IMG/VR virus record: IMGVR_UViG_3300042905_000928
Coordinates: 1 to 63,348 of that record
DNA: 63,348 nt
Direction: 5' to 3' (one strand)
Origin: a virus
Taxonomy: Duplodnaviria > Caudoviricetes
Under the pieces are notes generated by a model. That model was not told where the DNA came from and ran no database searches. It saw only the letters and a list, made by a program, of their open reading frames with translations. The translations under genes were made by a program, and so were the position numbers. Shown in pieces: positions 17,901-39,785 of this stretch (positions are counted from its first letter, which is position 1; each line of letters begins with the position of its first letter).

Positions 17901-20900
17901 AATTAATCTGTCTTTCAGTGACCTGTTCCTAAGATATTTAGAAAAACAACGACAAATTACAATTAAGTTTCCTAACGGAGAGAAACAAAAGAGAAGACTA
18001 ACAGACGAAGAACTTGGCCCTACGTTAGTTGAGCTATACAACTCTATAGAAGACTATATTAAAAATGCTGGGTTTGGAGAGGCTCCTGTATCTCCAATTG
18101 ATTATATGCACAACGCATTGCGTCAAGCTGGATACAAGACAGATGAGATTACTGGTAGAGATCTAGTAATTGATTACGCAGGTGGCGCTCCAGTCCTTCA
18201 AGGCCGTAAAGCTGATATTGCACAACGAGTTAATGCGGTTGATGGATTTAATAATGGTGATACCGATGTCATCATTCTTAACCAGGCTGGGTCTACTGGC
18301 TTGTCATTGCACGCATCAAGTAAGTTTAAGAACCAGCAGAAGCGCCACATGATCATTGTTCAGCCTGAGAAGAACATTGATACGCATATGCAGATGCTTG
18401 GACGTGTGCATCGTACTGGTCAAATACTTGCCCCTTCTTACTCACAAATGATGGCTGACATCCCTGCTGAGATGAGACCAGCTGCTGTTTTGATGAAGAA
18501 GATGGCATCATTGAACGCCAACACAACTGCTTCCCGCAAGTCATCAGTGACGGCTGAAGGCGTAGTTGATTTTATGAATGACTACGGCGGTCAAGTAGTT
18601 CAGGAATATTTGCGTGACAATCCTGAAGTAAATGAGGCAACTGGCAAAAACGTTACTTTAAAAGAAGATTCAACTGAAGGAACAGTTGAGGATATTGCTA
18701 CGTTTACTGGTTATCTTCCAATCCTACCAATTGCCGAGCAAGAAGAGGTTTACAGGGATATTACTGAGCGTTACAACGAATTGCTGGAGCGTGAGAACAG
18801 CCTTGGAACAAACAAGCTTGAGGCCAAAGATGTAGACTTACAGGCAGAAACACTATCTGTACAGCCTATTACAGAAGATAAGGGTGGTCGATCTTTATTT
18901 GCTGCACCAGCAGTAATGGAAAAGGTTGAAGTTAACAGAACTGTTAAACCTTACTCTAGCGCAGAAGTTAAAGAGCAGGTTGAGAAGTCACTTGATGGTA
19001 AGTCAAGTTCAGATGTTGCAGTTGAACAAACAGCATCTTTACTTGAGCGTTTCCGTGATTTTGCCACTAAGCAGATTGACAAAGCTAAAGAGTCAAATGC
19101 TGATGAAGTCAAGATTCAATCATTAAAAGACAACTTGCGAACAATGCACAGCAAGATCAAGGTTATTTTGGACACCTATAAGATTGGTGACGAGATCTCC
19201 ATCAAAGACTCTGCTGGCATATACAACTACGCTGTAATCACTGACATTACAAACTCTAAGAAGACAGCTAATCCAGCAGCTGGTTCTGACTGGAAGATGC
19301 ACATAGCATTGGCTAACGGTGATGCCAAGGCATTAACCATCAGCTTCTCACAGATCAACACTACGTACACTCTAAGCAAAGAATACTATGTAGACTACTT
19401 CAACCCTGAAACCCAGCAGGCTGAACGAGTCAAAGTCATGGATATTTTTGACAAGGGTGCGACTGTTCGCCGTGAGAAGCGTTGGATGGTGACTGGCAAT
19501 ATCTTGGCTGGCTTTGCTAAATATCCTGGTCAGATCGTAACTTATACCAAGAAGGATGGCTCAGTTGGTCAAGGCGTATTGATGAGCCGTCAGTTTGACT
19601 TTGAGAAAACTCAGAGAGAAGCACCAGTTCGCATTAAGTCAGCTGGCCAAGCTATGCGCTTCTTTGAAGAGATTGGTGGCGTTATTAGTACAGATGATAA
19701 CAATATGCGTATTGAGAAGTCAGGCCGATCTTATTATTTTGTTGCGCCAAAACCTAAACGCCAAGGTTTTATGTACTATGGTGATGAGAACTTAACTAAC
19801 TTTACTGGCACTTTCTATGGCTCTGGTGGAACCATGAGAGCTGTTGTATCAGATGAAGCAAAAGTTGAGCAGGCGATACAGTATTTAATTGATACAAATA
19901 AGAAACTGTTTGTTAAGACTGGTGTTGAAAAAGCCAGAGCAATGTTTAACCCACCTAAGTTGGAGAACATTGAAGAGAAGAAACTTACCGACATGGCTGT
20001 CCAAGATCGTATAGACACCATTAAAGAGTATTCTAAAGTTCGCAAAGCTGGTCGCAGATTAGTTAAGCAAATTGCTAAGTATGGCACTGACATTCCTATG
20101 CAACGCCAACTTAACGAAGTGCTTGCTCAGGAAGAAAACCTAAAGAACTACATTGACCAAACCAAAGTTCCATCTATAACAGCTGAAGCCTTTATGGCTA
20201 GAGCTACTGAAGAGTTGGCTGCTGGCAACATCACGCCAGAGGTTGAAAGATTCATTCGTTCTGTCTATGAGCAGTATCCAAGCATCTTAAATGGCCTCAA
20301 GCTATCTGTTCGTGCTAAAGAAGGCAAAGGAAGCGCTACTGGTAACTTTGATCCAATTGAACGTCTTGTAACCTTGTGGAAGGGTACATCTGGCGTAACC
20401 AAGTCTAAGACTGCTCGCCATGAGTTAACTCATACCATGGAGCAGATGATGCCTCCAGAGGCAAGAAAAGCTGTTATAGGTGCTTGGGCTAAATCTTTAG
20501 AAGCTGCCATGAAGAAGTATAAGGATGCACAAAGCCAAAAGTATTTTGAACAAGTACTAAAGTTTTTAGAAAATCCAACAGAAGAAACAGCTAAAGATGC
20601 TACAAACGTAATGCCTGACTACAGCTTCTACCAGTATCTCAACCCATCTGAATACTGGGCTGTAAACGCTGAGAAGATGTTCGGTCAACAATTAGGTGGA
20701 GCTTGGACTCGTTTTGTCAAGGCGATGGAGAAGATGTTTGAAGCATTAAAGGCCATGTTCTTTATGAACAATAAGTTGGCTGTTCATAGAGCATTTGATC
20801 AAATAATCAAGAAGCAACCTACCAGAGAAACTAGAGATTCATTGATGGAGTATCTGGCAGGCGCCAAAATTCCGACTCGTTTTCTCAATCAGATTGAAGA

Positions 20901-23790
20901 AGACAAGAATTTAGTTGAAGACTTGGGTATCCCTGATGTACCAAATAGGGACAGTCAAACTAAAAAAGATTACATCCTTGAAAAAGTAAGCAAAATTAAT
21001 GAAAAAGCAAAAGAAATCAAGGTAGATCCAAAAGAAAGCATGCAAGATGGTTTAGCGGTTGCTTATGATGCAGCAACCATGGCTCGTATTAAGAACGTGG
21101 ACTACACAGCTGGTTTGGCAAAAAGAGATATGGCCAAATGGGAAGGCCAGATTAGAACAGCTAACGGTGAAATGATTCCTATTTTTGCTGCATTGAATAA
21201 CTTGCGTGCTGGCCACTTGGCTAATGCTGTTTTAGTACATGGAAAGCTAGAGTACAGCGGAAAATATGGTGTATTCATTGCTGTTGACAGTGATGAGTCC
21301 ATGGGTAATGTTATTCGTTTACAAGAAAGATTACGTAGACGTTTGACTCAAAATGTAGCTGATAAACTAATTAATGGTTGGTTTATTGCAATGAGAACTC
21401 GCAGTATTCAAGACGAGTACTTTAATAGAACAGCAGAAGTCCGCAAGTTACAAGAGCTTCTTTTAGCTAACACTGATTCTTCTAAGTCTCTTGAAATTGA
21501 AGCTGCTTTGCTAGAAGCCCAGCAAGACTTGGCTAACATCAAGCTGGCTTATCAAAAGGTTCCGTATTACTTCACTGTTTATAAAGGTTTTATTACCAAA
21601 AAAATCAAAGGTAAAGAAGTTCAAATACCTGATGTTCAATACGACCAAGACGGATTGCCAATATTAAATGACACAGCCTTAGACTCTATAATTGCTCGCT
21701 CTGATGCACATCCAGAGTTGCAAATGATGATGGATAATTGGACTGCTGTTAACCACAATATGTTGGATAACTTGGCATTTAGTGGTCGTGAAAGTAGACC
21801 TTATGTAGAGAAGTTAAAGAAGATTAAGAACTACTCTCCTTGGTCTCGTGTAATGGAAGAGAGTCATAATCCATATGATGCAAAACAAATTCCTACAGGC
21901 TCTTCTGGTCCAAGACACTTTAAGGCTGGCAGAACTGAACGGGATGTAGATAACGTTGTTGAAAGCATGATGCACAACGTAGCCATGTTTACCCGTAGCA
22001 CCGTGAAGAACTATGCTCAGTATCGTATCGCCATGGAATATGCGGAACGTGCGCCAGATACTTTTGATTCAAAAACTGGAAAACCAAAGCGCGGAAGAAT
22101 TTTAGTGTTTTCTGGTGAGCCTCGCTCAGATGTAGAGGGTGCAAAATTGCCTCTCTATATTGGTGGCCGTAAGATGTTAATTAATATTCCAGATAACTTG
22201 GTTGCTGAAGCTTACATTGGAATGAGCGTTGCTCCTTGGGAGTACTCATTCAGGGAAGTTTTAGGATCAGCTGCTCAACTGGCAAGAAGATCAATTACAT
22301 TCTCTGGTGTGTTCCAGTTAAAACAAGTGTTCTATGATTCTTGGGCGGCTGCCCTTAAGTCTGGTAGCAAGCATCCGTGGCGATTGTGGGGAGCTACGTA
22401 CATAGGATTCTTTAGAGCATTAGAAATAGGCAAACAAGATAAGACTGTACAAATCTTAAAACGTGCCGCTATTGGTGGATTTAGATCGCATCACAGATCG
22501 CCAGACTTAGAGTTGAAGGTAGAGGTTGGTTTATTAACCAACGACAATTGGCAAACGCTGATGAGCAGTATTGATGCTATTGGCGATGCTTCAGATTACT
22601 CAACTCGTATTGCTACTTATGACCAACTACTAAAAGAGTCAGGTGACCCAGCTTTAGCATTGTTTATGTCATCTAATATTATGGATTTTGGTAAGCATGG
22701 CAAAGGTATGGTTGGCCAGACGATGAAAGAAACAGTAACGTTTATGCAAGCTTGGGCAACAGATCTTGATACGATGTCGCAGACTGCCATGGGTGGAGCT
22801 GTTACAGGCAAAGCCAAGAAAGATCTTAAAAAGCAATTCCAAAAAACTATGATTAATTTCATGATTTTAGCTATTGCCTATACACTACTTGCAAGCTTAG
22901 ACCCTGACTATGACGAGTTGGATGACTCAACCAAGGCAAGAAACTTCTATGTACCGTTCTCTAAGAAAGCTACTGGCGCTCATGTTTTAATCCCCTTGAA
23001 TAACAATGCTGCGTTTTTCTTTAAAGTAACTCCTGAAATGCTAATTAACTACGTGCGCAAGTACGGCACAGAGGAACATATTGACACAACCAGAGCAGTA
23101 AATGCTTGGTTTAGTGCAATGGTTGATTCAGTGCTTGGCCCTACACCAATCCCAACTGGTATTAAGCCATCGCTTGAGATATTCTTGGATAGAAACACAT
23201 TCACAGGCGGTACTATTGTTCCAAAGAGCTTGAAAGATCTTACCTCTGCGGAGCAGTACACAGCCACAACATCTGAAATTGCAAAGTTACTTGGCGAGTA
23301 CACAGGCATTAGCCCAGTAAAGACAGACCATTTTATTCGTGGAACGTTTGGAACAATGGGTGGTTTAGCTCAGTGGTTCAGTAATATCATCTTCTCAGAA
23401 GGCCGTGTTGCTTCAGAGTTAAAACAAAACCCAATCCTCAGTTCATTTGTAGCTCCTGACGTTCTTAAGTTAAACGAGCAGCTCTACTACGATCTTAAAG
23501 AAAGAACAACCAAGGCACATGAGACTTGGGAAGACTTACTGAAAAATGAGAAGTTTGAGAAGGCAGATGCTTGGTATGAGAAGAATGAGAAGTTAATTGA
23601 AGCGCATGCCTACGTTACTTCTATTGAAACAGAACTGAAGGAACTTAACAAAGAGATCCGAAGGCTTGGAAGGACATATGATAAAAGCATGTCTCCAGAG
23701 GAGAAACGTGCGGAGATCAATGATTTTACCAAAAATAAACAGGATCTATTAGACGGAATATTTGAGGTCAGAAGAGACGCAGGGTTGTAA
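11986..23790 (+). CDS. giant polyvalent ejected protein (DarB-like): ART-like + N6-adenine MTase + Strawberry-notch SF2 helicase + zincin peptidase + LPD38-like C-terminus
   Basis: LYHTT...IWF...KLENPL...GFDGII (~13945-14310); EPSAGNG (15541), NPPF (15715); GDQTGVGKGR (16786), LDESH, QMLGRVHRTGQ (~18391); HELTH (20419). Confidence 0.85.
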   Translation: MDYDKLAKQLGGEAYSQPDLDELASGLGGKFQKPSFGQQLLEGEGLDIVKPKKTGSVLEGTTLTPAEQAAPATGPSLAEVAGKIKERIPEAELNAARIAELEEKTRQYEEEVPFLQRQTDPIMSGIARIPGYLPGLDVASTQKEINKIRQGQSGVRDPISGEIIPFSPEEAENAIRMLQERQAGSQKQVMESQAEAGKYRKRPTVEAIGNVKTAREAFDAFQVDPFGVMASVSLESLPTMVPALVLGAVTRNPAVGALAMGSTSFATELSSGITEYFQDKGINTNDPVAVNKALNDPVMFAKAYEHALTRASIIGTLDMASAGIASKMLVPKSLVKSQVAKEAINIGVAQPAAQMISGGGGEALAQIATEGSITKPGQVFLEAAGEGPTSILETAAFGGEKAIQRLKGQQDQGPDTLTDVRVPPTAPESIDPELQARAAMRFEQILLDAQATNKINTRDLNKLARELDIKPSKDVNDTKNAIYNKLFITPEAPAPEVSPKVEAAPSPIKAPEVVEEPSIPTTVRAFDEAEFAETADQPQVKATQPEIVQSFPMGENSEFRVIKSDQGYVANLYDKDAEQYLDTMRLFPTETFGEEAEGRAIEFARSESEKAAALLPQATEVLKEEEVKAAPKAIELTNTKEGFIASKDGKPITLYHTTRAVDENGNQIKDLIPGGPKGDGSGKAIWFGIDPNKLQAAHNAPVGKEGSYTIPSYVKLENPLYIDDFNYQEMRDRWGPDLPFSISDERIEKLKSAGFDGIIYEDNGQIEEVVAFNKDQVTFKSDYKPEAPAAAPVEPVKTQAQINQERQAAQREAAAVAKPSKEEVTEKKMLDAIEGIKKTKGTANQFIAKYGKAMFDRAKAEGYIDNEANDQRLFSTLKLDELWSKYNKPEDYAAMIKRREAGEKERQAEQAKIAEEAKPAEAPREMDKLQKDMGTEAYPFAKPEVKVSENKIFTEDAATKARNRLRSKLNQLNSGIDPEFLIDGITLSGYHIEKGARTFAAYSKAMIADLGDKVKPYLKQWYNAVRDDPSAKELVDDMDTYDQVQKASLPSAEEGTMDLMDPDSKFKIAQAISQHFVSGNGFPTIIEARKFISNLTGKKIEPATADAKEADEAIEVGIVLAARKIVESGESKENIYNNLVDLYNRQPNLSVRSSTSIKEQAYSTPAPLAYIASQLAGIDKKTTVYEPSAGNGMLLIGANPKNVIANELNATRYEMLKKVLPDAEVVNKNALSFDPTLSDVVIANPPFGAIGEEVFSAEGFKTREIDHAISYKALGRMPVNGRAVLIVGGVRGETEDARREGYRSAQKRAFYSNLYNNYNVVDHFTVDGDLYKKQGAAYPVDVIVINGKGQSKRSYPAADLPQVYSSYEQLKEKLNEPSLVSKRDVSTARVDSGDAAKGRGEQQGLDRGTVGQGVRPSDAGERSTESGTTGVPSTGAATSGRGEPAGELRGEGEPKSENKPKLPEDKGPVSSEPKRIEPRGAASDQANKPSAVGGAGQVSGKRVEPGLADRRGQEQETSTQVAYSPHSKASAVGTLAPNAMAQAIDESLTYLEDQVGDIDEYVASKLDFDVEELKIKFSAEQVDALALAISNAEQGKGFIIGDQTGVGKGRVVAGMIKYALLQGQIPIFMTQKANLYSDMIRDLDDIGMTDVLNLNSNTPNILITQADEKIPFKLSRQDKNGNPIEEKYTLENPVSQEKHNAFMKQLVKDNDLGKFKVIFSAYDSMNTYRGNKTERAKMVEHFANNNYLILDESHAAGGSGTDPEAQNRANFIRSLVNNSKGSFFSSATYAKRPDVMDLYSTTDMKLAVEDISELGEAIKRGGVPMQQVVANMLTKSGQYIRRERTFAGVSYETKENNVNKPTAENMATAMRYILDFSNKKKGAVKELKKELDEMGAVGGERDSKTEIKQVHFGSTMHNLIDQMLLSLKTAESVDFAIERLKAGEKVVLTVANTMGSFMKDFAEDNGLKKGDEINLSFSDLFLRYLEKQRQITIKFPNGEKQKRRLTDEELGPTLVELYNSIEDYIKNAGFGEAPVSPIDYMHNALRQAGYKTDEITGRDLVIDYAGGAPVLQGRKADIAQRVNAVDGFNNGDTDVIILNQAGSTGLSLHASSKFKNQQKRHMIIVQPEKNIDTHMQMLGRVHRTGQILAPSYSQMMADIPAEMRPAAVLMKKMASLNANTTASRKSSVTAEGVVDFMNDYGGQVVQEYLRDNPEVNEATGKNVTLKEDSTEGTVEDIATFTGYLPILPIAEQEEVYRDITERYNELLERENSLGTNKLEAKDVDLQAETLSVQPITEDKGGRSLFAAPAVMEKVEVNRTVKPYSSAEVKEQVEKSLDGKSSSDVAVEQTASLLERFRDFATKQIDKAKESNADEVKIQSLKDNLRTMHSKIKVILDTYKIGDEISIKDSAGIYNYAVITDITNSKKTANPAAGSDWKMHIALANGDAKALTISFSQINTTYTLSKEYYVDYFNPETQQAERVKVMDIFDKGATVRREKRWMVTGNILAGFAKYPGQIVTYTKKDGSVGQGVLMSRQFDFEKTQREAPVRIKSAGQAMRFFEEIGGVISTDDNNMRIEKSGRSYYFVAPKPKRQGFMYYGDENLTNFTGTFYGSGGTMRAVVSDEAKVEQAIQYLIDTNKKLFVKTGVEKARAMFNPPKLENIEEKKLTDMAVQDRIDTIKEYSKVRKAGRRLVKQIAKYGTDIPMQRQLNEVLAQEENLKNYIDQTKVPSITAEAFMARATEELAAGNITPEVERFIRSVYEQYPSILNGLKLSVRAKEGKGSATGNFDPIERLVTLWKGTSGVTKSKTARHELTHTMEQMMPPEARKAVIGAWAKSLEAAMKKYKDAQSQKYFEQVLKFLENPTEETAKDATNVMPDYSFYQYLNPSEYWAVNAEKMFGQQLGGAWTRFVKAMEKMFEALKAMFFMNNKLAVHRAFDQIIKKQPTRETRDSLMEYLAGAKIPTRFLNQIEEDKNLVEDLGIPDVPNRDSQTKKDYILEKVSKINEKAKEIKVDPKESMQDGLAVAYDAATMARIKNVDYTAGLAKRDMAKWEGQIRTANGEMIPIFAALNNLRAGHLANAVLVHGKLEYSGKYGVFIAVDSDESMGNVIRLQERLRRRLTQNVADKLINGWFIAMRTRSIQDEYFNRTAEVRKLQELLLANTDSSKSLEIEAALLEAQQDLANIKLAYQKVPYYFTVYKGFITKKIKGKEVQIPDVQYDQDGLPILNDTALDSIIARSDAHPELQMMMDNWTAVNHNMLDNLAFSGRESRPYVEKLKKIKNYSPWSRVMEESHNPYDAKQIPTGSSGPRHFKAGRTERDVDNVVESMMHNVAMFTRSTVKNYAQYRIAMEYAERAPDTFDSKTGKPKRGRILVFSGEPRSDVEGAKLPLYIGGRKMLINIPDNLVAEAYIGMSVAPWEYSFREVLGSAAQLARRSITFSGVFQLKQVFYDSWAAALKSGSKHPWRLWGATYIGFFRALEIGKQDKTVQILKRAAIGGFRSHHRSPDLELKVEVGLLTNDNWQTLMSSIDAIGDASDYSTRIATYDQLLKESGDPALALFMSSNIMDFGKHGKGMVGQTMKETVTFMQAWATDLDTMSQTAMGGAVTGKAKKDLKKQFQKTMINFMILAIAYTLLASLDPDYDELDDSTKARNFYVPFSKKATGAHVLIPLNNNAAFFFKVTPEMLINYVRKYGTEEHIDTTRAVNAWFSAMVDSVLGPTPIPTGIKPSLEIFLDRNTFTGGTIVPKSLKDLTSAEQYTATTSEIAKLLGEYTGISPVKTDHFIRGTFGTMGGLAQWFSNIIFSEGRVASELKQNPILSSFVAPDVLKLNEQLYYDLKERTTKAHETWEDLLKNEKFEKADAWYEKNEKLIEAHAYVTSIETELKELNKEIRRLGRTYDKSMSPEEKRAEINDFTKNKQDLLDGIFEVRRDAGL
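16109..16507 (+). CDS. candidate overprinted 132-aa helical protein inside the giant gene
   Basis: AAGGAG at 16096-16101, ATG at 16109; globular-looking sequence where the host frame is a low-complexity linker. Confidence 0.55.
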   Translation: MNLAWYPKEMLAPPELTAVMLPKGEVSNKDWIEALSDRVSDLAMQENDPLKAAQQACLALELPLVDEANQLGNCVVKENLNLRTNLSCQKTKDPFPANLSESNQEALQAIKQTNLAQWVELAKSAVSVSSLD

Positions 23791-24261: not shown

Positions 24262-24290
24262 TTGACATTACTCTCAACTGGTCATAATAT
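24262..24290 (+). promoter_or_regulatory. sigma70 promoter of the recombination operon
   Basis: TTGACA (24262-24267), 17 nt, TAATAT (24285-24290). Confidence 0.75.
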
Positions 24291-24296
24291 TGAGTC

Positions 24297-24321
24297 TCAA
24301 CTGCTAGGAAAGGAAAATCAA
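24297..24321 (+). promoter_or_regulatory. conserved leader motif copy 1 (TCAACTGCTAG-GAAAGGAAAATCA)
   Basis: Immediately after the -10 box, covers the RBS; recurs at 30956 (+), 39775 (-), 40797 (-). Confidence 0.7.
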
Positions 24322-25221
24322 GTGAAACTAACCAATAAGTATGGTATCCCACAGACGTTTATGAATGTCTTGGAGCGCCCTACATACAGTAAAGGTAAGG
24401 CTAATATCTCAGCGACTCAGCTGTTGAATAGCCCAAAGATCGTTGCTTTGACCAAGAAGTTTGATGAGGAACTGGAACAGGACGTGGCTGACATGATTTG
24501 GTCACTGTTTGGTTCAGCGATGCACAACATTCTTGAACATGGCAAAGATGGTAATCATGTGGTGGAACAGCGTGTCCACGTAGAGCATGACGGTTGGCAC
24601 ATCTCAGGCGCTGTTGACCTACAGATTGTGAATCCTGATGGAACGATTGATATTCGTGACTACAAGACCACATCTGCATGGGCAATGATGAACGAGAAGA
24701 TTGAGTGGGAACATCAACTCAACATCTACGCATGGCTTATTCAGCGTGCAAAGAAGCAAACTGTTAGTTCTGTGGGTATTGTTGGCTTAATCCGTGATTG
24801 GAATCGCCGTGAAGCGGCTACGAAAGAGGGCTATCCAGAAGCTCCAGTCAAAGAAATCCCAATCAAACTGTGGACGTTTGAAGAGCAAGAACAGTTTATC
24901 TCTAAAAGGGTGGCATTGCATAGTGCTTGTGAGTTCGCCATGGAAACAGAGGGCGACTTACCTGACTGCACCCCAACAGAGATGTGGGAAAAGCCAACGG
25001 TTTGGGCTTTGAAGAAAGAAGGAAACATCAAGGCTAAGGCTTTGTATGAGACTGAGGCACTTGCAGAGGAAGCTTTAAAAATTGCCTCTGAGAAAGATCC
25101 CAAGTCTAAGTTCTATGTAGAAGTAAGACCAGGAGAGCGTACTCGCTGTGCGAGCTTCTGTTCTGTTGCCCAATACTGCCAACAGTATCGGGACTATTTA
25201 AATCTTAAGGAGGAAGAATGA
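24322..25221 (+). CDS. PD-(D/E)xK Cas4-like exonuclease
   Basis: ISAT, GSAMH, SGAVDL...DYKT, QLNIY, C-terminal C..FC.V...C; GTG start after AAGGAAAA. Confidence 0.8.
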   Translation: MKLTNKYGIPQTFMNVLERPTYSKGKANISATQLLNSPKIVALTKKFDEELEQDVADMIWSLFGSAMHNILEHGKDGNHVVEQRVHVEHDGWHISGAVDLQIVNPDGTIDIRDYKTTSAWAMMNEKIEWEHQLNIYAWLIQRAKKQTVSSVGIVGLIRDWNRREAATKEGYPEAPVKEIPIKLWTFEEQEQFISKRVALHSACEFAMETEGDLPDCTPTEMWEKPTVWALKKEGNIKAKALYETEALAEEALKIASEKDPKSKFYVEVRPGERTRCASFCSVAQYCQQYRDYLNLKEEE

Positions 25222-28594: not shown

Positions 28595-28818
28595 GAGAAG
28601 ACTTTGAAGAGTGGGCGAAAGGTAAAATTTCTTTAGCCAACTATGACGGTGAATACGCCAATCTTGAGTCTCAGATAGCTTGGCAAGCATGGCAACGTTC
28701 GTGGAACATTGCAATCCGTGCGCAAAGACAAAGGGATGAGGCAGAGCTAAACGCCCTCAAGAACAAGATACTAATTGCTAAGGCCGCTTTAACGACTAAG
28801 GTTTTGGGTGCAAGATGA
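28591..28818 (+). CDS. hypothetical protein (FEEW...AWQAWQ type)
   Basis: Coupled ORF, recurrent phage motif. Confidence 0.55.
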   Translation: MREDFEEWAKGKISLANYDGEYANLESQIAWQAWQRSWNIAIRAQRQRDEAELNALKNKILIAKAALTTKVLGAR

Positions 28819-29474
28819 TTCCTAAAATCATTCACATCATCTGGATTGGCGATCAGTCCAAGAAGCCTACCCAGTGCATTGACACTTGGATTAAAAAGAA
28901 CCTTGACTACGAGGTAAGGGTTTGGGGTAACAATCAAGTCCAAAGTGTTAACTGGAAGAACTACCGCCAACTCCATGACATGCTGGCTAAGAAAGACTAC
29001 GCAGGGGCTAGTGACGTAATGCGTTATGAAATCCTCTACGAGCATGGTGGCATCTATGTAGATGCTGATACCTATTGCGTTAAGCCATTAGAAGATTGGT
29101 TGTTAAATTGTCAGGCGTTTGCCTCTTGGGAACAGGAGCTGGTGCGTAACAATCTGATAGCCAATACGGTGCTGGGCAGCGCTCCTGGGGCTGAAGCATT
29201 GAAATTATGTATAGAAGAAGTGGCTACCAAGGACTGCACAGAACAAAAACTGGCATGGATGATTACTGGTCCAATGCTTGTAACAGAGATATTTTTTAAG
29301 AAACAAGCCAATCTAACGGTGTATCCTTCTCATTTCTTTATGCCAGAACATCACTCTGGATACGAAAGTAAAGTTACAGGTCATCACTTTGCTCGGCATC
29401 TGTGGGGATCTGGCACAGGTTACGACAATATGGATGAAAGATTTAGAAATGACACCACAAAATCAACAACGTGA
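28815..29474 (+). CDS. glycosyltransferase, GT32/OCH1-like
   Basis: IPKIIHIIWIG, SDVMRYEILYEHGGIYVDAD. Confidence 0.88.
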   Translation: MIPKIIHIIWIGDQSKKPTQCIDTWIKKNLDYEVRVWGNNQVQSVNWKNYRQLHDMLAKKDYAGASDVMRYEILYEHGGIYVDADTYCVKPLEDWLLNCQAFASWEQELVRNNLIANTVLGSAPGAEALKLCIEEVATKDCTEQKLAWMITGPMLVTEIFFKKQANLTVYPSHFFMPEHHSGYESKVTGHHFARHLWGSGTGYDNMDERFRNDTTKSTT

Positions 29475-29488
29475 AGAAAGAGAGCAAA

Positions 29489-30262
29489 ATGAGCGAAAAC
29501 AACGAGAAACCAACGACTAAATCACCAACATTATTTGTAGCTACACCTATGTACGGTGGTATGTGCATTGGTAACTACGCCGCAGCTCTTATGCAGATGC
29601 CAATGATTGTAAGTAAAGCTGGTATTAAGATGTACTACACCTACATGATGAACGAGAGCCTGATTACCCGTGCCCGTAACAGTTTGGCTTATGATTTCTT
29701 GGCTTCAGATGCTACTCATTTGATGTTTATTGATGCTGACGTTGGGTTTCAACCTAATGACATCGTTGAGATGGTTAAGCGTGACGTGGATATTTGTTGT
29801 GGTTTGTACCCCAAGAAAGAAATTCATTGGCAACGAGTGGCTGATGCGGTAGGCAGAGGCGTGCCAGCTGACCAGTTAAAAGACCATACAGGTACATTCG
29901 TGGTGAACTTGGTTAAAGAAGAACGCCAAGAAGTAAAGATGAATGAATTATTAGAGATTCACAATGGTGGCACAGGCTTTATGTTGATCAAACGTGAAGT
30001 GTTTGAGGCTTTGGCTGATAAAGTGCCTGAATACAACAGTGATATGTATCTAGCCGTAGACACCGTAAGAACACCAAAAATTATTAAAGAATACTTTGCG
30101 ACCAGCATTGACCCTGAATCCAATAACCGCCTGCTATCTGAGGACTACCATTTCTGTAAGTTAGCGCGCAAGCATGGGTTCAAGGTGCATGCTGCGCCAT
30201 GGGTACAGTTATCTCACACTGGAACATACATCTTTAGCGGTGCTTTACAGCGTGTATCGTAA
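29489..30262 (+). CDS. GT-A-fold glycosyltransferase-like protein
   Basis: VATPMY, SLITRARN, LMFIDAD, GTGFMLIKREVF, LSEDYHFC. Confidence 0.75.
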   Translation: MSENNEKPTTKSPTLFVATPMYGGMCIGNYAAALMQMPMIVSKAGIKMYYTYMMNESLITRARNSLAYDFLASDATHLMFIDADVGFQPNDIVEMVKRDVDICCGLYPKKEIHWQRVADAVGRGVPADQLKDHTGTFVVNLVKEERQEVKMNELLEIHNGGTGFMLIKREVFEALADKVPEYNSDMYLAVDTVRTPKIIKEYFATSIDPESNNRLLSEDYHFCKLARKHGFKVHAAPWVQLSHTGTYIFSGALQRVS

Positions 30263-30539
30263 TAAGAAGCTATTGGAGGCTCTGCGTGAGTCTCCATGCC
30301 AACATTGTGGAAAACAAGATGGAACAATTGTTGCAGCGCACAGTAACCAGCTTAGAGATGGCAAAGGCCGTAGCATCAAGGCACATGACTACAGGACGGC
30401 AGCTCTATGCTACTGGTGTCACATGGAACTGGATCAGGGCAAAGACCTATCGAAAGCTGACAGGGAAGAGCTATGGGAAAACGCCCATCGTAAGACGGTA
30501 GGCTGGCTTTTTGAATCAGAAAAACTTACAATTAAATAA
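30252..30539 (+). CDS. HNH-like Zn-binding nuclease (DUF1364/DUF968-like)
   Basis: PCQHCG...AAH...ALCYWCH. Confidence 0.7.
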   Translation: MYRNKKLLEALRESPCQHCGKQDGTIVAAHSNQLRDGKGRSIKAHDYRTAALCYWCHMELDQGKDLSKADREELWENAHRKTVGWLFESEKLTIK

Positions 30540-30607
30540 AGCGAAAGCCAGCTTTACAAGCGAGACAAGGATTGCCCTTAAAGTGAGTTTGGCTGGCGAG
30601 TAGCTTT
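30538..30607 (+). ncRNA. structured hairpin with loop-E/sarcin-ricin internal loop
   Basis: AAAGC-GAAA-GCCAGCT ... GGCTGGC-GAGTA-GCTTT. Confidence 0.45.
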
Positions 30608-30627
30608 TTGCAAAAAAAATCGGCATT

Positions 30628-30643
30628 AAGTAAATATTTACTT
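30628..30643. promoter_or_regulatory. perfect 16-bp palindrome, candidate operator
   Basis: AAGTAAATATTTACTT, 15 bp upstream of the sRNA -35 box. Confidence 0.5.
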
Positions 30644-30658
30644 GACAAACACTATAGG

Positions 30659-30688
30659 TTGACAGGTGTTAAGAATTTCTGCTATATT
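30659..30688 (+). promoter_or_regulatory. sigma70 promoter of candidate sRNA
   Basis: TTGACA (30659-30664), 18 nt ending in extended TGc, TATATT (30683-30688). Confidence 0.75.
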
Positions 30689-30692
30689 TAGT

Positions 30693-30820
30693 GTATCAGT
30701 CCCCTTACTGATAGCCGTCAACCTGATTTTTCCGATTTAGCAGTTGGACTATCTTGACGGCAGCCCTCCAGGTGATCCCCTTCACCCTAAACCCCCAGCT
30801 AATCCCTGGGGGTTTTTCTT
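30693..30820 (+). ncRNA. candidate trans-acting antisense sRNA, four stem-loops
   Basis: Stems TATCAGT/ACTGATA, GCCGTCAA/TTGACGGC, GGTGA/TCACC and terminator AAACCCCCAG/CTGGGGGTTT; no ORF; loops complementary to phage leaders and RBSs. Confidence 0.75.
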
Positions 30821-30821
30821 T
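30789..30821 (+). terminator. intrinsic terminator of the sRNA
   Basis: 10-bp stem followed by U-rich tract. Confidence 0.8.
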
Positions 30822-30879
30822 GTGCCAATATGGTAAGAGCATGCCATGAATAATTTCCGTTAAAACGTACCTTTGTCAA

Positions 30880-30906
30880 TAACCTGAAATAGCTTATTTG
30901 AGGTTA
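30880..30906. promoter_or_regulatory. imperfect palindrome, candidate operator
   Basis: TAACCTGAAATA-GCT-TATTTGAGGTTA just upstream of the replication-operon -35. Confidence 0.45.
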
Positions 30907-30920
30907 CCTTTAAAAAGTTG

Positions 30921-30949
30921 TTGCAATTTATTTTTACTTCATTTAATCT
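30921..30949 (+). promoter_or_regulatory. sigma70 promoter of the replication operon
   Basis: TTGCAA, 17 nt, TAATCT; followed by GAGCCTCAACTGCTAG at the same spacing as the 24262 promoter. Confidence 0.7.
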
Positions 30950-30954
30950 AGAGC

Positions 30955-31356
30955 CTCAACTGCTAGAAGGAAAAATCAGGAACTGAAACAACTTCCTGAT
31001 GACAATTAGATTACCACCACGCCATTCATGGTGTGAGCTTGTGTCTCTTTGTCACTTTCTTTCTAGCATATGACGTACTCCACACGATAGCAAGAACCTA
31101 CATGGGTTGCGTGGAAGTAAACATAGGCTGATTTCATCACCCGATTTAGCCTCGTAGCCTTAAATGGGGACTACACAAGACGGAGAGCCAAGCGGTGAGA
31201 CCAACTCTCCATCGAATGAACATTAACTTAGGTAGGACTAGCAGTAACTGTGGAGTAGTGTATGGATTCGGAGAGTGTTATATGTGGGTCGGAGTGGTTA
31301 AGCACAACAGATGGTTGGCTTATCACCCTTGGGGGAACTATCAATTGGAGCAATGT
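30955..31356 (+). ncRNA. ~400-nt structured 5' leader / candidate RNA switch
   Basis: Helices 30961-30973/31056-31068, 30975-30982/30993-31000, 31076-31084/31249-31257, 31125-31131/31146-31152; alternative 30959-30966/31238-31245. Confidence 0.6.
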
Positions 31357-31656
31357 ATGAAAAACAAAGAACTTACAGACATAATCCTTGAAGCCATTAC
31401 GGAGCATGGATGTGTCACAACAACACAGATTGCAGACCTTCTCAAAGTTAATTCAGCCACCGCAGCAGGGCGGTTGACTTACCTTAGATCACAGGGTCGC
31501 ATTGTGGGCAAAAGAGCTAATTGGGCATTTAGATTGGAAGATCTAAAGGTCAAGCCCAAACAGCATATCGTTAATCAATCATTCACTGAACTATCAAATA
31601 TCTTTTACAACATAGTTCGCATGGGAGCTACAAATGAAAAAAATCAACATTCTTAA
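31357..31656 (+). CDS. winged-helix DNA-binding protein
   Basis: GGAG RBS; TTTQIADLLKVNSATAAGRLTYLRSQGRI HTH. Confidence 0.65.
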   Translation: MKNKELTDIILEAITEHGCVTTTQIADLLKVNSATAAGRLTYLRSQGRIVGKRANWAFRLEDLKVKPKQHIVNQSFTELSNIFYNIVRMGATNEKNQHS

Positions 31657-32479
31657 TATCCGCATTGATGGTGGCACACAGCCACGTCAAGAAATTGACT
31701 ACGATGTAGTGAAAGACTACGCAGAACTCATGCGTGATGGCGTGACATTTCCACCAGTCACCGTTTACTTTGATGGCGCAGAGTATTGGCTTGCAGACGG
31801 TTTCCACCGCTACCATGCCACTAAATCCAACGCTACAGCCACCATTGAAGCAGAAGTAATCACTGGTTCAATAGATGATGCTGAAGAGTATTCATTCACA
31901 GCCAACGGGGGTCGTGGTAACGATCTTACGAGAGAAGACAAGAAAGCCATCATCAGAAGAATGTTCCTGAAGAAAGAACGTTACGGAGACTGGTCACAGG
32001 AACGTATTGCCAAGCATGTCCATGTGTCACCCATGTTCGTCAGCCGAGTCAAGGCAGCCATGGAAATCAAAGATGAGCCAAAGGTCAAGAAGTTCATCAA
32101 AGATGGCGTAGAGAAAGAGATGAATGTCTCCAATATTGGTAAAAAAGCCAAGAATCAACCTACTAAACCTACTAAACCTGAAGTAGAACCGTATGACGAA
32201 AGCGAAGACAAAATCCGTGAGCTATCTGAGGTCATCACCCAGTTAGACGAGGAAGTAACGCTTCTGAAGGACAAGATAGCCATTGGTCAATGGGATGCCT
32301 CAGAAATTGAGAAGATTGACGTGGAAGAAACCCTTGTGGACTTGCGTGAACGAATCAGACTACTGGAAATTGACAACAAAGCATTGCGTGAGAGCAGAGA
32401 TATGTTCCAAAACCGTAACGCAGAGCTGATGAAAACAGTCACTTATTTACAAAGAAAGCTTAAAAAGGAAACAGCATGA
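31634..32479 (+). CDS. ParB/Srx N-terminal domain protein with HTH and coiled coil
   Basis: TQPR...FPPV...LADGFHRY; SQERIAKHVHVS HTH. Confidence 0.8.
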   Translation: MKKINILNIRIDGGTQPRQEIDYDVVKDYAELMRDGVTFPPVTVYFDGAEYWLADGFHRYHATKSNATATIEAEVITGSIDDAEEYSFTANGGRGNDLTREDKKAIIRRMFLKKERYGDWSQERIAKHVHVSPMFVSRVKAAMEIKDEPKVKKFIKDGVEKEMNVSNIGKKAKNQPTKPTKPEVEPYDESEDKIRELSEVITQLDEEVTLLKDKIAIGQWDASEIEKIDVEETLVDLRERIRLLEIDNKALRESRDMFQNRNAELMKTVTYLQRKLKKETA

Positions 32480-32640
32480 TGGATTACTCATTAATAATGA
32501 TTAAGATGCAAATTGGTTTAAAGGATTTGCACGATGCTATTAACTCCAAGGACTGGATGGAAATTGACATTCAAGCAGATAACCTTGCTTTCTTGGCAAA
32601 ACAAATGCGTGACTCAGTTGCCGACATCCAGACTAAATAA
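32476..32640 (+). CDS. hypothetical protein (54 aa)
   Basis: AAGGA RBS, coupled on both sides. Confidence 0.55.
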   Translation: MMDYSLIMIKMQIGLKDLHDAINSKDWMEIDIQADNLAFLAKQMRDSVADIQTK

Positions 32641-34115
32641 TGGAATTACACCTACGAGAACACCAACAAGAGGTCATAGAATCTCTCAGGGAAGGCTTCC
32701 GTCAAGGGCATAGGTCGCAGTTGTTATACGCACCAACAGGGTTCGGCAAGACCGAGGTAGCCATAGCCCTGATGAAAGCTACAGGCGAGAAGTTTAAACG
32801 CGCAGCCATGGTATTGGATCGCATTGTTTTGGTAGACCAAACCAGTCTTCGCTTGGATAAATACAGACTGAAGCATGGCGTATTCCAAGCTAACCACTGG
32901 CGGTATGACAAGCGAGAACGCCTACAGGTATGTTCAGCCCAAACCTTAGAACGCAGGGATGACTTTCCAGAGATGGACTTGTTAATCGTTGATGAGTGCC
33001 ACATTGCTCGTAAGCAGACATCCGAGTTCATTAAGGATAACCCCAACATCCGTGTTGTTGGCTTGACTGCTACCCCCTTCACCAAAGGACTAGGCGATCT
33101 GTATACCAATGTTGTATGCGGTTCAACCACTGAATCCTTGGTAGATGAGAAGTGGCTTGCTCCCCTGAAGGTATTCATTGCCAAAGAGATTGACATGACT
33201 GGGGCGAAGAAGTTAGCTGGTGAGTGGTCACAGGATGTGGTCACAGAGCGAGGTATGAGGTTAACAGGCGATATAGTATCTGAGTGGATCAAGAAGACTC
33301 ACGATGTATTTGGGAAACCACGCAAGACCATTGTCTTCTGTGCGGGCGTAGCCCATGGAGCAGACTTGGTTCAGCAGTTCGCAGACCATGGCTATAACTT
33401 TGTATCCATCAGCTACAAGGATGATGATGAGTTCAAAAAGGCAGCCATTGAGGACTTTGCGAAGCCAGACACCCAAATCCATGGACTGATAGCCACCGAC
33501 ATCCTCACAAGGGGTTTTGACGTATCAGATGTCATGATTGGGGTATCAGCAAGACCGTTTAGCAAATCACTGTCATCCCATGTGCAACAAATGGGGCGAG
33601 TCATGCGCCAACATCCTGAAAAGGAGTTCGCTTTATGGTTAGATCACAGTGGAAATTACCTACGCTTTCAAGATGATTGGGATGAGCTATACGAAAATGG
33701 CGTTAAATCCCTCACAAATGAAGGCGAAAAAGCCAAAAGAGAGCCAACAGAGAAGAAAAAGAAAGAATCCAAGTGTCCAGTATGCCAACATTTATGGCCA
33801 AAAAGCTCAGATACTTGCCCTAGTTGCGGTCATGTTAGACAGAAACGCAACGAAATATCCGCAGTATCAGGTCATTTAGAGGAGCTAGTCGCTGGAGCAA
33901 AGATCCGCAAGGATGATAAGCAAGACTTCTACTCACAGTTGGTATTCATTGCAAGGGATAAAGCATACAACCCCCACTGGGCAAGTCACAAGTATCGTGA
34001 GAAATTTGGCGTATGGCCAAGGGGATTGGTAGAAGTTCCTGCCCCACCGACAATGACAACCCTCAAGTGGATAAAATCACGCAACATCAAATGGTCAAAA
34101 GGTAAGAATAAATGA
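32640..34115 (+). CDS. SF2 DExH helicase (RadD/YejH-like) with Zn finger
   Basis: APTGFGKT, VDECH, GLTATP, QQMGRVMR, CxxC..CxxC. Confidence 0.9.
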   Translation: MELHLREHQQEVIESLREGFRQGHRSQLLYAPTGFGKTEVAIALMKATGEKFKRAAMVLDRIVLVDQTSLRLDKYRLKHGVFQANHWRYDKRERLQVCSAQTLERRDDFPEMDLLIVDECHIARKQTSEFIKDNPNIRVVGLTATPFTKGLGDLYTNVVCGSTTESLVDEKWLAPLKVFIAKEIDMTGAKKLAGEWSQDVVTERGMRLTGDIVSEWIKKTHDVFGKPRKTIVFCAGVAHGADLVQQFADHGYNFVSISYKDDDEFKKAAIEDFAKPDTQIHGLIATDILTRGFDVSDVMIGVSARPFSKSLSSHVQQMGRVMRQHPEKEFALWLDHSGNYLRFQDDWDELYENGVKSLTNEGEKAKREPTEKKKKESKCPVCQHLWPKSSDTCPSCGHVRQKRNEISAVSGHLEELVAGAKIRKDDKQDFYSQLVFIARDKAYNPHWASHKYREKFGVWPRGLVEVPAPPTMTTLKWIKSRNIKWSKGKNK

Positions 34116-34942
34116 GATTTGAAGATTTTGCCAAAATCCATGGACTGATCCTACGGGAAGTTACCCCCTTCAAATGGATGGCAACACCAACAGAAGACCA
34201 TCCAAACAAACGCAATGGGCGATACAAGTTCATGGGTGATATAGGATGGGTGCAAAACTGGGCAACCATGGACAAACCAGCCATGTGGAAGACAGAAGAT
34301 CGAAATGCGCTCAATCCAGAGCTGCTGCGACAAAAATCCAATTTTGAGGATGAAAGAGCAAAACTAGCAAAAAACGCTCAATCCAAGGCAGAGTGGATAA
34401 TTTCTCAATCCACCCTTCAAACGCATGAATATCTTGCCAAAAAAGGCTTTCCAGACGAAGAATCCATGGTATGGAATACTGATAAGGGCGACAAGTTAAT
34501 GGTCATACCTATGCGTAAAGGCGGAGAATTGGTAGGGTGTCAGTTGATCAATGAGCAAGGGGAAAAGAAGTTCTTGTATGGTCAGCAGACTAAAGGGGCA
34601 TCCTTCAGGATCGGTGCAAAAGGCATCCCTATACTTTGCGAAGGTCTTGCCACTGGATTGTCGGTCAGGTCGGTAATGCAAGCGAATAAACTCGATTGTG
34701 CTATCTACATTTGCTTTTCCGCAAGCAATGTTCAAGAAGTAAGTCGGCACATCCTCGGTGGGTTCATCATTGCTGATAATGATCCCAACGGAGTCGGAGA
34801 ATCCACTGCTCAAAAAACAGGTAAGCCATATTGGATTTCCGACACAGTTGGAGAAGATTTTAATGACTACCACATAAGAGTAGGCACTTTTAGGGCTAGT
34901 CAATCAATTAAGCCGTTAACTTATAAAAATAAGATTGAGTGA
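34112..34942 (+). CDS. Toprim DNA primase-like protein
   Basis: YLAKKG, CEGLATG, ADND, GEDFNDY. Confidence 0.8.
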   Translation: MRFEDFAKIHGLILREVTPFKWMATPTEDHPNKRNGRYKFMGDIGWVQNWATMDKPAMWKTEDRNALNPELLRQKSNFEDERAKLAKNAQSKAEWIISQSTLQTHEYLAKKGFPDEESMVWNTDKGDKLMVIPMRKGGELVGCQLINEQGEKKFLYGQQTKGASFRIGAKGIPILCEGLATGLSVRSVMQANKLDCAIYICFSASNVQEVSRHILGGFIIADNDPNGVGESTAQKTGKPYWISDTVGEDFNDYHIRVGTFRASQSIKPLTYKNKIE

Positions 34943-39576: not shown

Positions 39577-39765
39577 TTAATGAGTTAAGTTAGCGTAATG
39601 CACGCCATGTTCAGCACATACCTTGACGAAGAAATCATCCTTCTTCAACGCACCAGTCATAGCGGATGCAATCTCTCTTGCAGTCCGATAAGGCATGGCG
39701 TTTTCTAAATGCACCCTAGCGATTGCTTTAGGCACAGGCTTTGAATTGATATACCACTGAATCAT
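39577..39765 (-). CDS. hypothetical protein
   Basis: AGGAG RBS preceded by the leader motif. Confidence 0.6.
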   Translation of the reverse strand: MIQWYINSKPVPKAIARVHLENAMPYRTAREIASAMTGALKKDDFFVKVCAEHGVHYANLTH

Positions 39766-39774
39766 TTGTATCTC

Positions 39775-39785
39775 CTAGCAGTTGA
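39775..39785 (-). promoter_or_regulatory. conserved leader motif copy 3 (TCAACTGCTAG)
   Basis: Starts 5 nt 3' of the hammerhead cut site and overlaps the RBS. Confidence 0.7.

Follow-up and report, generated by a model that had tools for sequence, protein, structure and literature searches.

We analyzed the leader of the replication operon in a 63,348-nucleotide (nt) stretch of phage DNA (IMGVR_UViG_3300042905_000928; Duplodnaviria, Caudoviricetes), hereafter called the window, the whole of which is spanned by a virus record of 63,348 bases from a freshwater phage with a completeness rating of 100%. The leader (30956-31356, + strand) is non-coding and consists of two modules, namely module 1 (30956-31071), whose 5' end is complementary to a trans-acting small RNA (sRNA) encoded upstream and also folds back in cis, and module 2 (31074-31341), which belongs to a family of pseudoknotted RNAs termed core-1. 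A co-evolving gate made of the sRNA and the fold-back, fused to a member of a new and widespread family of knotted phage RNAs, is in our assessment real; how it regulates the operon, and what module 2 does, we infer. The explanation toward which we lean slightly is that the sRNA acts as a multi-target translational repressor, that the fold-back gates its access to the leader, and that module 2 is an inserted cis-acting RNA.

To obtain relatives, IMG/VR was searched with the ParB-like protein encoded in the operon, which yielded 80 loci (labelled L...). By blastn, homologues of the sRNA were located in L002/3, L004 and L006/7/9, and L208 also carries one; the leader was recovered in its entirety from L004 and in part from L027/38 and L015/16. 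A pattern scan of IMG/VR with the conserved block of the leader promoter gave 8 stretches, and two further contigs were gained. The unit of sRNA plus leader was represented by five distinct variants, those of the window, L002, L004, L006 and L208. A blastn search with 30540-31660 returned zero matches in the phage collection and in the plasmid collection.

The sRNA (30694-30822, + strand; about 128-129 nt, with predicted ends) comprises a 5' hairpin, an antisense hairpin, a small hairpin and a terminator. It is preceded by a promoter-like site (30659-30688, + strand; TTGACA, 18 nt, TATATT, with TG before the -10) that matches 11/12 consensus positions and whose hexamers are kept in L002, L004 and L006, and it ends in an intrinsic terminator (30789-30815, + strand; 10-bp stem followed by a U-run), the sole terminator-like site within 30000-32000. 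The 129-nt stretch folds with -48.2 kcal/mol (z = -6.70), a stability equalled by none of 200 shuffled sequences. Two blocks of the sRNA face the leader: the seed UAGCAGUUG (30738-30746, + strand), complementary to CAACUGCUA (30957-30965), and the specificity block CCUGAUUUUUCC (30722-30733, + strand), complementary to GGAAAAAUCAGG (30969-30980). The UAGCAG of the seed is present in all six sRNA variants seen, L027 among them, and the sequence of the specificity block is different in each of the five variants. The antisense segment occurs a single time in the genome. The sRNA gene and the leader share the same strand and are separated by about 130 nt (30823-30955), and their complementarity is partial. 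On the minus strand of this spacer, a promoter-like site (30879-30850; TTGACA, 18 nt, AATTAT; 10/12) is aimed leftward into the sRNA gene and would yield a transcript antisense to the sRNA; the spacer bearing it is missing in L002 and L006 and altered in L004.

A promoter-like site for the leader was identified at 30922-30949 (+ strand), with TTGCAA (30922), a spacer of 16 nt and TAATCT (30944); its block AGTTGTTGCAA..TTTAATCT is kept in 4/4 aligned relatives. Reading from these hexamers, the transcript would start near 30956, and the sRNA target would thus be its extreme 5' end. The target (30957-30980, + strand) consists of CAACUGCUA, a 3-nt gap and GGAAAAAUCAGG, so that the predicted duplex contains blocks of 9 and 12 bp around a 3/4-nt internal loop (RNAduplex, -38.8 kcal/mol with the cognate sRNA). 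The same strand is also the 5' side of a fold-back domain, P0 (30961-31068, + strand), predicted as a three-way junction with a closing helix (30961-30973/31056-31068), hairpin 1 (30975-31000, + strand) with the A-rich loop CUGAAACAAC, and hairpin 2 (about 31017-31037, + strand). The minimum-energy fold of each of the five leaders was such a three-way junction shut by a long helix. The 116-nt domain of the window folds with -43.1 kcal/mol (z = -6.29), and none of 200 shuffled sequences was as stable; the z score of the complete 416-nt leader was merely -2.49, and that of the opposite strand -2.48.

That the sRNA target is sequestered in cis by a 13-bp helix and an 8-bp hairpin had been proposed in an earlier note on this DNA, and the comparison of variants bears this out. 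The closing helix contains 12 Watson-Crick pairs and one G-U pair, and all 8 pairs of the hairpin (30975-30982/30993-31000) form; in both helices, compensatory changes maintain the pairing in 5/5 variants, for example from CAGGAA/UUCCUG in the window to CGAGAA/UUCUCG in L004. Covariation is three-way and extends to all five variants: the sequences of the second sRNA block, of the target and of the cis strand about 100 nt downstream differ from variant to variant, and complementarity is retained. Since one and the same 5' strand can pair either with the sRNA or with 31056-31068, the two pairings are mutually exclusive. Predicted energies of the cognate sRNA-target duplexes of the five variants ranged from -32.4 to -38.6 kcal/mol versus -17.2 to -27.4 kcal/mol for non-cognate combinations, with the exception of the window sRNA on the L002 target (-34.7 kcal/mol), and the cognate RNA was the best partner in 5/5 rows and 4/5 columns of the resulting matrix. 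At 33 other core-bearing loci, the upstream small RNA and the 5' end of the next transcript gave the same mean for cognate and non-cognate combinations (-27.5 kcal/mol); antisense pairing of an upstream small RNA with the next transcript thus has no support beyond the clade of the window.

An additional cis partner for the target, CTAGCAGT at 31238-31245, had also been suggested. It does complement 30959-30966, but CUAGCAGU at 31238 is identical in L004, and this second pairing is consequently without covariation. Similarly, the leader does contain a copy, in the sense orientation, of sequence from the sRNA loop, CCGATTTAGC being identical at 30732-30741 and 31141-31150; in L004, however, it is found in the leader and not in the sRNA, and the same 1161 bases hold a second exact 10-nt repeat that is meaningless.

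Mutually exclusive cis and trans pairing of a 5' strand is also what favors the reading of the leader as an attenuator, in which, in the style of pT181 or pIP501, the strand freed by the antisense RNA would complete an intrinsic terminator hairpin. No stem followed by a U-run was found anywhere in 30823-32000, however, the one such site nearby being that of the sRNA itself, and the freed strand has no conserved partner. Unlike in pT181 and pIP501, no alternative pairing that completes a terminator was found, and we therefore consider antisense-induced intrinsic attenuation, one form of the antisense-controlled attenuator that the earlier note had put forward, scarcely credible.

The seed motif was found to recur at other genes. 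The 10-mer CAACTGCTAG occurs three times in the window versus 0.18 expected, a number reached in none of 100 shuffles. The second sRNA target (24262-24324, + strand) is formed by a TTGACA/CATAAT promoter-like sequence followed by CAACUGCUAGGAAAGGAAAAUCAAGUG (site 24298), which overlaps the Shine-Dalgarno (SD) sequence and the GTG start of a gene for an exonuclease (24322-25221, + strand; phrog_2139, 2.1e-48), with a duplex energy of -28.0 kcal/mol. The third (39763-39784, - strand) is CAACUGCUAGGAG (site 39784), followed after 7 nt by the AUG of a 62-codon open reading frame (ORF) that heads a leftward gene block (-25.2 kcal/mol). In five related records, AACTGCTAR was present 5, 6, 5, 5 and 5 times versus 1, 3, 0, 3 and 1 times for the reversed control. 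We inspected 21 extra seed sites, 19 of which are immediately followed by an SD sequence and a start codon (17/19 in relatives and 2/2 in the window). Among these 19 are the ribosome-binding site (RBS) of the helix-turn-helix (HTH) gene that opens the operon in L006, and the RBS of a mini-ORF overlapping the HTH start in L002 and L004. On the strength of such seed sites directly beside or over SD sequences elsewhere in the genome, we interpret the sRNA as a multi-target repressor. In the records G003, G004 and G005 (loci L273-L278 and L281), an intergenic cassette composed of a terminator-like hairpin, a small hairpin GGGAUUG..CAAUC, AACUGCUAGGAG, 5-8 nt and ATG was observed to recur before several genes.

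With several targets sharing one seed, the leader could also be a decoy, its 5' domain titrating the sRNA and thereby relieving the exonuclease gene, the leftward operon and, in relatives, the HTH gene; the fold-back would then set the amount of leader available as decoy. The predicted leader duplex is indeed the strongest of the three (-38.8 versus -28.0 and -25.2 kcal/mol), and none of the other sites has a genome-specific extension. Moreover, the leader site is near-identical to the exonuclease RBS, yet no start codon follows it: the 5' end of the exonuclease gene at 24298-24330 (CTCAACTGCTAGGAAAGGAAAATCAAGTGAAAC) is nearly the same as the leader 5' end at 30955-30990 (CTCAACTGCTAGAAGGAAAAATCAGGAACTGAAAC), and the leader copy looks as if it had descended from an RBS. 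On the other hand, the operon of L002, L004 and L006 carries a second seed site at an RBS, so that the replication operon is itself a target of the sRNA, and a decoy hidden by a helix of 13-20 bp would be a weakened one. We accordingly regard titration by the leader as unlikely.

Activation in the manner of IsrK is a further alternative, in which the folded-back leader would be inactive, and the sRNA would invade the closing helix and shift the leader, and perhaps module 2 with it, into a translatable or stable form. Its precedent is described in PMC4825925, according to which the short IsrK RNA of Salmonella Gifsy-1 competes with a cis helix of its target and, by opening that helix in a read-through transcript, turns translation on. 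The gene order is the same as for IsrK, with the sRNA gene followed by the target on the same strand. Nevertheless, the geometry at 19/21 other sites is that of repression, with the seed over or beside the SD sequence, and no sequence was found whose release by sRNA binding would free the RBS at 31346. These considerations make activation a somewhat less probable reading than titration, and repression remains the one that we prefer.

Module 2 (31074-31341, + strand), which makes up two thirds of the leader, was recognized as a separate entity by its conservation. The stretch of about 31065-31345 is ~94% identical between the window and L004, in which the ParB proteins are 58% identical, and a profile of this shared stretch gave 20 matches among the ParB loci. 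A degenerate 18-nt motif was found in at least 120 IMG/VR contigs, and the collection assembled from the matches listed in IMG/VR phage contigs comprises 141 core-1 copies, 132 of them full-length and at least 108 distinct, with a length range of about 235-320 nt. When the window, L004 and L027 were left out of the profile, it still gave a single match in the window, that of module 2, at E = 2.5e-25. With Rfam 15, by contrast, zero matches were obtained for the whole window at gathering score; at E up to 10, region 30400-31700 gave five weak matches, all to other families and none to C4/IsrK, eight other core-1 loci (78,806 bases) gave none, and the L019 core-1 copy at E up to 10 gave a single 6.9-bit match to a mammalian long non-coding RNA model. 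By blastn of the window region and two other members against the phage collection, no core-1 was detected in cultured phages; one of these two members had no match, and the other a single 53-nt match in an uncultured virus record. In bacterial genomes, the 18-nt pattern had 54 matches, which is near chance, and one true member, on a 2.7-kb contig of a Methylobacter metagenome-assembled genome. Core-1 is thus an RNA family absent from Rfam 15 and without a described relative found. It may already be listed, without description, in the catalogue of PMC10690425, whose RNA candidates from phages number more than 10,000 and include five located upstream of a major capsid gene.

A secondary structure of core-1 was derived from an alignment of 64 sequences with less than 88% mutual identity. 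RNAalifold predicted 29 pairs, 24 of which show compensatory changes, and a covariation scan added further long-range pairs. In the window, the helices correspond to 31074-76/84-86, 31079-82/112-15, 31094-98/105-10, 31125-28/149-52, 31154-57/171-74, loop 31160-66 with 31221-26, 31179-87/205-13 and 31194-98/31323-27 (all + strand). For the 47 pairs considered, a count that includes three small, wrongly bracketed pairs in helices 12 and 13 to be disregarded and that was made on the same sequences from which the structure was derived, 95.1% of the cells can pair versus 74.4% in shuffled alignments and 31-43% with the partners slid. Cells changed on both sides numbered 620 versus 182 (shuffled) and 62-105 (slid), the covariation score was 0.567 versus 0.185 (reached in 0/500 shuffles) and 0.045-0.096, and 32 of the pairs change on both sides. 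The structure contains at least two long-range pseudoknots as well as invariant unpaired nucleotides. In one pseudoknot, a hairpin loop pairs with a segment 60 nt downstream (UUAAAUG/CAUUAA in the window, CAGCGA/UCGCUG in most members); in another, the GGUG loop of a different hairpin pairs with CACC of the 3' tail. Such a conserved, covarying, aptamer-like fold is what a riboswitch would present; association with the genes of one pathway, together with an expression platform, was not found for module 2, the downstream genes of which vary.

This family structure also clarified the pairings that had been assigned to UACUCCACA (31076-31084), for which a far partner (31249-31257) and a near partner (31111-31119) had been put forward. 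The far pairing is perfect in the window (9/9) but is disrupted in the closest relative, as L004 carries GTGTTGTA where the window has GTGGAGTA; in addition, the far partner lies inside an insertion missing from most other members of the family. The near pairing needs a bulge in the form originally quoted; its part 31079-31082/31112-31115, however, is helix 2 of the family, in which 4/4 pairs change on both sides. The leader was confirmed to be untranslated as well. Translation from GTG 31195, which would extend the 99-aa protein of the first gene at its N terminus, was considered and rejected, because this frame runs into an in-frame TAG in L004, where zero + strand ORFs of at least 30 aa cross the leader region.

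The two modules are independent of each other. P0 and the sRNA occur without module 2 in L002, L006 and L208, where the gate is followed instead by a second conserved non-coding element, core-2, and module 2 occurs without P0 at most loci; the leader is thus a composite. Core-2 is ~190 nt long, contains the motifs GGGUGCUGUGGCUCC, AACAGUUGAAGGCA and GGCUAGGUG, and was recorded in 25 locus rows in total (L002:2821-3025, L006:3456-3664 and L208:832-1025 among them). In the rows inspected, it takes the place of module 2 in sister phages, between the gate and the ParB-like gene.

The gene neighborhoods of core-1 bear on whether module 2 serves the operon at all. A scan of 48 loci, which covered 97 of the 153 listed flanking ORFs, showed that, within two ORFs downstream, 17 of these loci have a ParB-like gene, 5 encode a major head protein and 3 a replication initiator. 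That core-1 precedes such differing genes, that promoter-like sequences or operator-like palindromes often stand between it and the next gene, that it has several pseudoknots and invariant unpaired nucleotides, and that core-2 substitutes for it in related operons would all suit a stand-alone gene for a trans-acting or catalytic RNA (protein-binding, ribozyme or sensor of a general cell signal), in which case its place in this 5' UTR would be incidental and the gate would control the production of module 2 and not that of the operon. Against this, the gap between module 2 and the following ORF has no space for a promoter in the window and in L004, and core-1 was oriented with the downstream gene in all examples inspected. 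Furthermore, an ATG follows the core-1 tail CACC(C)UUGGGG at a fixed distance of 6 nt in 49/107 copies, with TTG or GTG in many others, and in L128 this ATG begins a 124-aa ORF with a PHROG match from residue 5. The post-tail ORFs are mostly tiny, with a median of 6 codons and at most 12 codons in 43/55, and the window has ATC at this position. We judge the stand-alone reading a substantial possibility, if not the expected outcome. A cis role of module 2 in ribosome access or RNA stability is nevertheless favored, because the G-run GGGGG (31331-31335, + strand) in the conserved 3' tail CACCCUUGGGGG is SD-like and lies 11 nt before the operon SD; this is the weakest part of the proposal, and a stand-alone function is about as likely.

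Several further observations were made around core-1. In many loci, it is preceded at a distance of 20-30 nt by a hairpin with a U-run. In L015, L019, L055, L195, L154, L090 and L188, this upstream position is occupied by an element of 100-130 nt with a long stem GCCGUUUA...UAAACGGC and a U-run, which in L015, L019 and L055 has its own promoter-like site; the element may be a small RNA or the counterpart of the fold-back domain of the window. In L119, an inserted, P0-like domain closed by ACTGTTAAATGATGATG...CATCATCATTTAGCAGTTAAG lies between the upstream hairpin and module 2 and holds an sRNA-like motif, UUUAGCAGUU. Palindromes such as ATGTCATGAGGTGACAT, which look like operator sites for a repressor, stand between core-1 and the ParB gene in L018, L019, L020, L093 and L199. 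The post-tail mini-ORF reads M-[A/P/S/L]-K... (e.g., L195, L105 and L090), and its stop often falls within the -35 hexamer of the promoter-like site that follows; it could mark a true start site or just a conserved A-rich promoter flank.

The earlier note had alternatively viewed the leader as a replication pre-primer or origin under antisense control, in the style of ColE1 RNA II and RNA I. The long structured RNA does adjoin helicase and primase genes, and its extreme 5' end is where the sRNA pairs. Unlike ColE1 RNA I, however, the sRNA is trans-encoded, with partial complementarity in two blocks, and is neither transcribed from the opposite strand, overlapping the leader, nor fully complementary to it. 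Moreover, no iterons were found, and GC skew has no switch at 31 kb, its cumulative curve turning solely where gene orientation turns, near 33-36 kb, although GC skew here tracks the gene strand and is therefore weak as an origin test. Module 2 also precedes capsid genes, and the sRNA has RBS targets elsewhere. An origin or pre-primer therefore appears very improbable. Parts of 31023-31342 are covered by contigs from four public RNA libraries, and parts of 31361-31680 also by those of one run; these are assembled contigs, none of which falls on the sRNA or on 30956-31022, and they indicate neither transcription nor its absence.

On the repressor explanation, the gate would operate as follows. 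The sRNA would catch the leader 5' end only on the nascent transcript, before the cis strand about 100 nt downstream exists, and the distance of that strand suggests such a co-transcriptional window. Capture would block the fold-back and leave the 3' half of the domain unpaired, within which 31038-31074 is pyrimidine-rich (28/37 bases), and Rho or an RNase, not an intrinsic terminator, would then lower the amount of full-length translatable mRNA. Because the sRNA gene is replicated along with the genome, this would amount to a dose-dependent negative feedback that damps replication-gene expression as copy number rises. Module 2 would be an autonomous RNA placed between the gate and the first gene, its tail pairing back into the fold. 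Rather more tentatively, core-1 may be a large phage RNA of a new, multiply pseudoknotted class, acting in its own right as a sensor or catalyst, which together with the seemingly unrelated core-2 would constitute operon-head cargo, gated in this lineage by the co-evolving fold-back and an sRNA that also silences several RBSs; we rate this as doubtful.

A number of points weigh against this explanation. There are just five gate-bearing variants, of related lineages, and the covariation counts of the gate are small; those of core-1 carry the circularity mentioned above. The fold-back is not obligatory, as L027 carries the 5' target without a cis partner. Both transcription starts rest on hexamer matches, and the 5' target of the window sits 400 nt from the first RBS, the direction of regulation being deduced. 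When the target was blocked in folding calculations for the window, L004, L006 and L208, the partner of the freed strand differed each time, and no conserved alternative helix emerged. The promoter-like sequence found between module 2 and the next gene at many other loci argues for a stand-alone RNA gene and not for a cis element. Finally, the recurring motif AACUGCUAGGAG could mainly be a protein-binding or translation-enhancing site.

With regard to the genome setting, an HNH endonuclease gene (30174-30539, + strand) precedes the sRNA gene, which is followed by the leader and the replication operon. The first operon gene (31357-31656, + strand; SD GGAG at 31346-31349, ATG at 31357) encodes the 99-aa winged-helix-like (HTH) protein, with a match to AbiEi_4 (7.3e-05) that is under Pfam's cut-off. 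It is followed on the + strand by genes for the ParB-like protein (31634-32479), an SF2 helicase (32640-34115) and a Toprim primase (34112-34942), with a 54-aa ORF between the first two of these. A tRNA/tmRNA scan of the whole window yielded zero genes, and no tyrosine integrase was found in the window. Elsewhere, 11986-23790 (+ strand) is one open reading frame of 3934 codons that spans 11.8 kb, and a pair of glycosyltransferase-like genes (28815-30262, + strand) lies directly upstream of the HNH gene. For the first of the pair, a match to Gly_transf_sug (a DXD sugar-binding family) was obtained, along with a weaker one to the catalytic glycosyltransferase domain of TcdA/TcdB, and its product is probably a phage enzyme that modifies DNA or surface sugars.

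Comparison with known systems places the gate nearest to the small phage RNAs that control replication or immunity operons from just upstream. The specificity of the c4 RNAs of P1 and P7 is set by few bases, and RNAs of the C4/IsrK group mature from a longer precursor by RNase P. Like P1/P7 c4 and IsrK, the sRNA is a phage RNA that acts in trans and is encoded shortly before its target operon, on the strand of that operon; as expected of the C4/IsrK group, it was found to contain two short blocks with complements in the leader of this downstream operon. It is not a member of that family, however, since it has no covariance-model match. Moreover, unlike c4 and IsrK, it finds its main target in the first 25 nt of the transcript, at a long distance from the RBS, and it also has RBS targets in other operons; IsrK activates, whereas repression is proposed here. 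According to PMC4825925, the CI RNA of P4 has short complements, seqA and seqC, in the untranslated leader of its replication operon, pairs with them and keeps the replication genes off. The sRNA is like P4 CI in being a small phage RNA that pairs with a replication-operon leader. It is unlike CI in that CI is cut from the leader transcript and has targets on both sides, whereas the sRNA comes with promoter-like and terminator-like sites of its own, and its targets are all downstream or elsewhere; termination sites, which P4 uses, have no intrinsic-terminator-like equivalent in 30823-32000.

The other features of the system have separate parallels. In hok/sok, the mRNA 5' end pairs with the 3' end (fold-back inhibition, fbi), and 3' processing releases it. 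The cis helix at the leader 5' end likewise hides an antisense site, so that the regulator needs a particular folding state; unlike in hok/sok, the partner is only about 100 nt downstream, and there is no toxin gene. RybB and GcvB of enterobacteria each act with one short conserved seed on multiple RBS-adjacent targets. A short conserved seed and a recurring motif at or beside several RBSs are shared by the present sRNA, in which, unlike in RybB and GcvB, the regulator and all targets are phage-encoded, a single target having in addition a strain-specific block and a competitor in cis. GOLLD and ROOL are large orphan structured RNAs from phages and metagenomes that constitute Rfam families. 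Module 2 is like them in being long, pseudoknot-rich and phage-borne, with invariant unpaired bases, and unlike them in being smaller, in having no Rfam match at the thresholds used, and in its location at operon heads rather than in the neighborhood of tRNA genes.

Few model elements (P1, P4 and IsrK) have so far shown phage replication genes to be under antisense control, and the present analysis extends the same antisense logic to a complete phage in which no tyrosine integrase was found. An RBS regulon of a phage sRNA, a strain-specific second block and a covarying cis fold-back are not known to have been seen together before. Large conserved knotted RNAs are rare, and earlier ones proved to be riboswitches, ribozymes or RNA assemblies; core-1, now represented by 108 or more distinct sequences, covaries strongly, has several pseudoknots and is not in Rfam 15. 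If core-1 is truly a new RNA class gated by the sRNA, the leader and its sRNA would represent a self-contained, RNA-only circuit with a strain-specific 'immunity' in uncultured freshwater phages.

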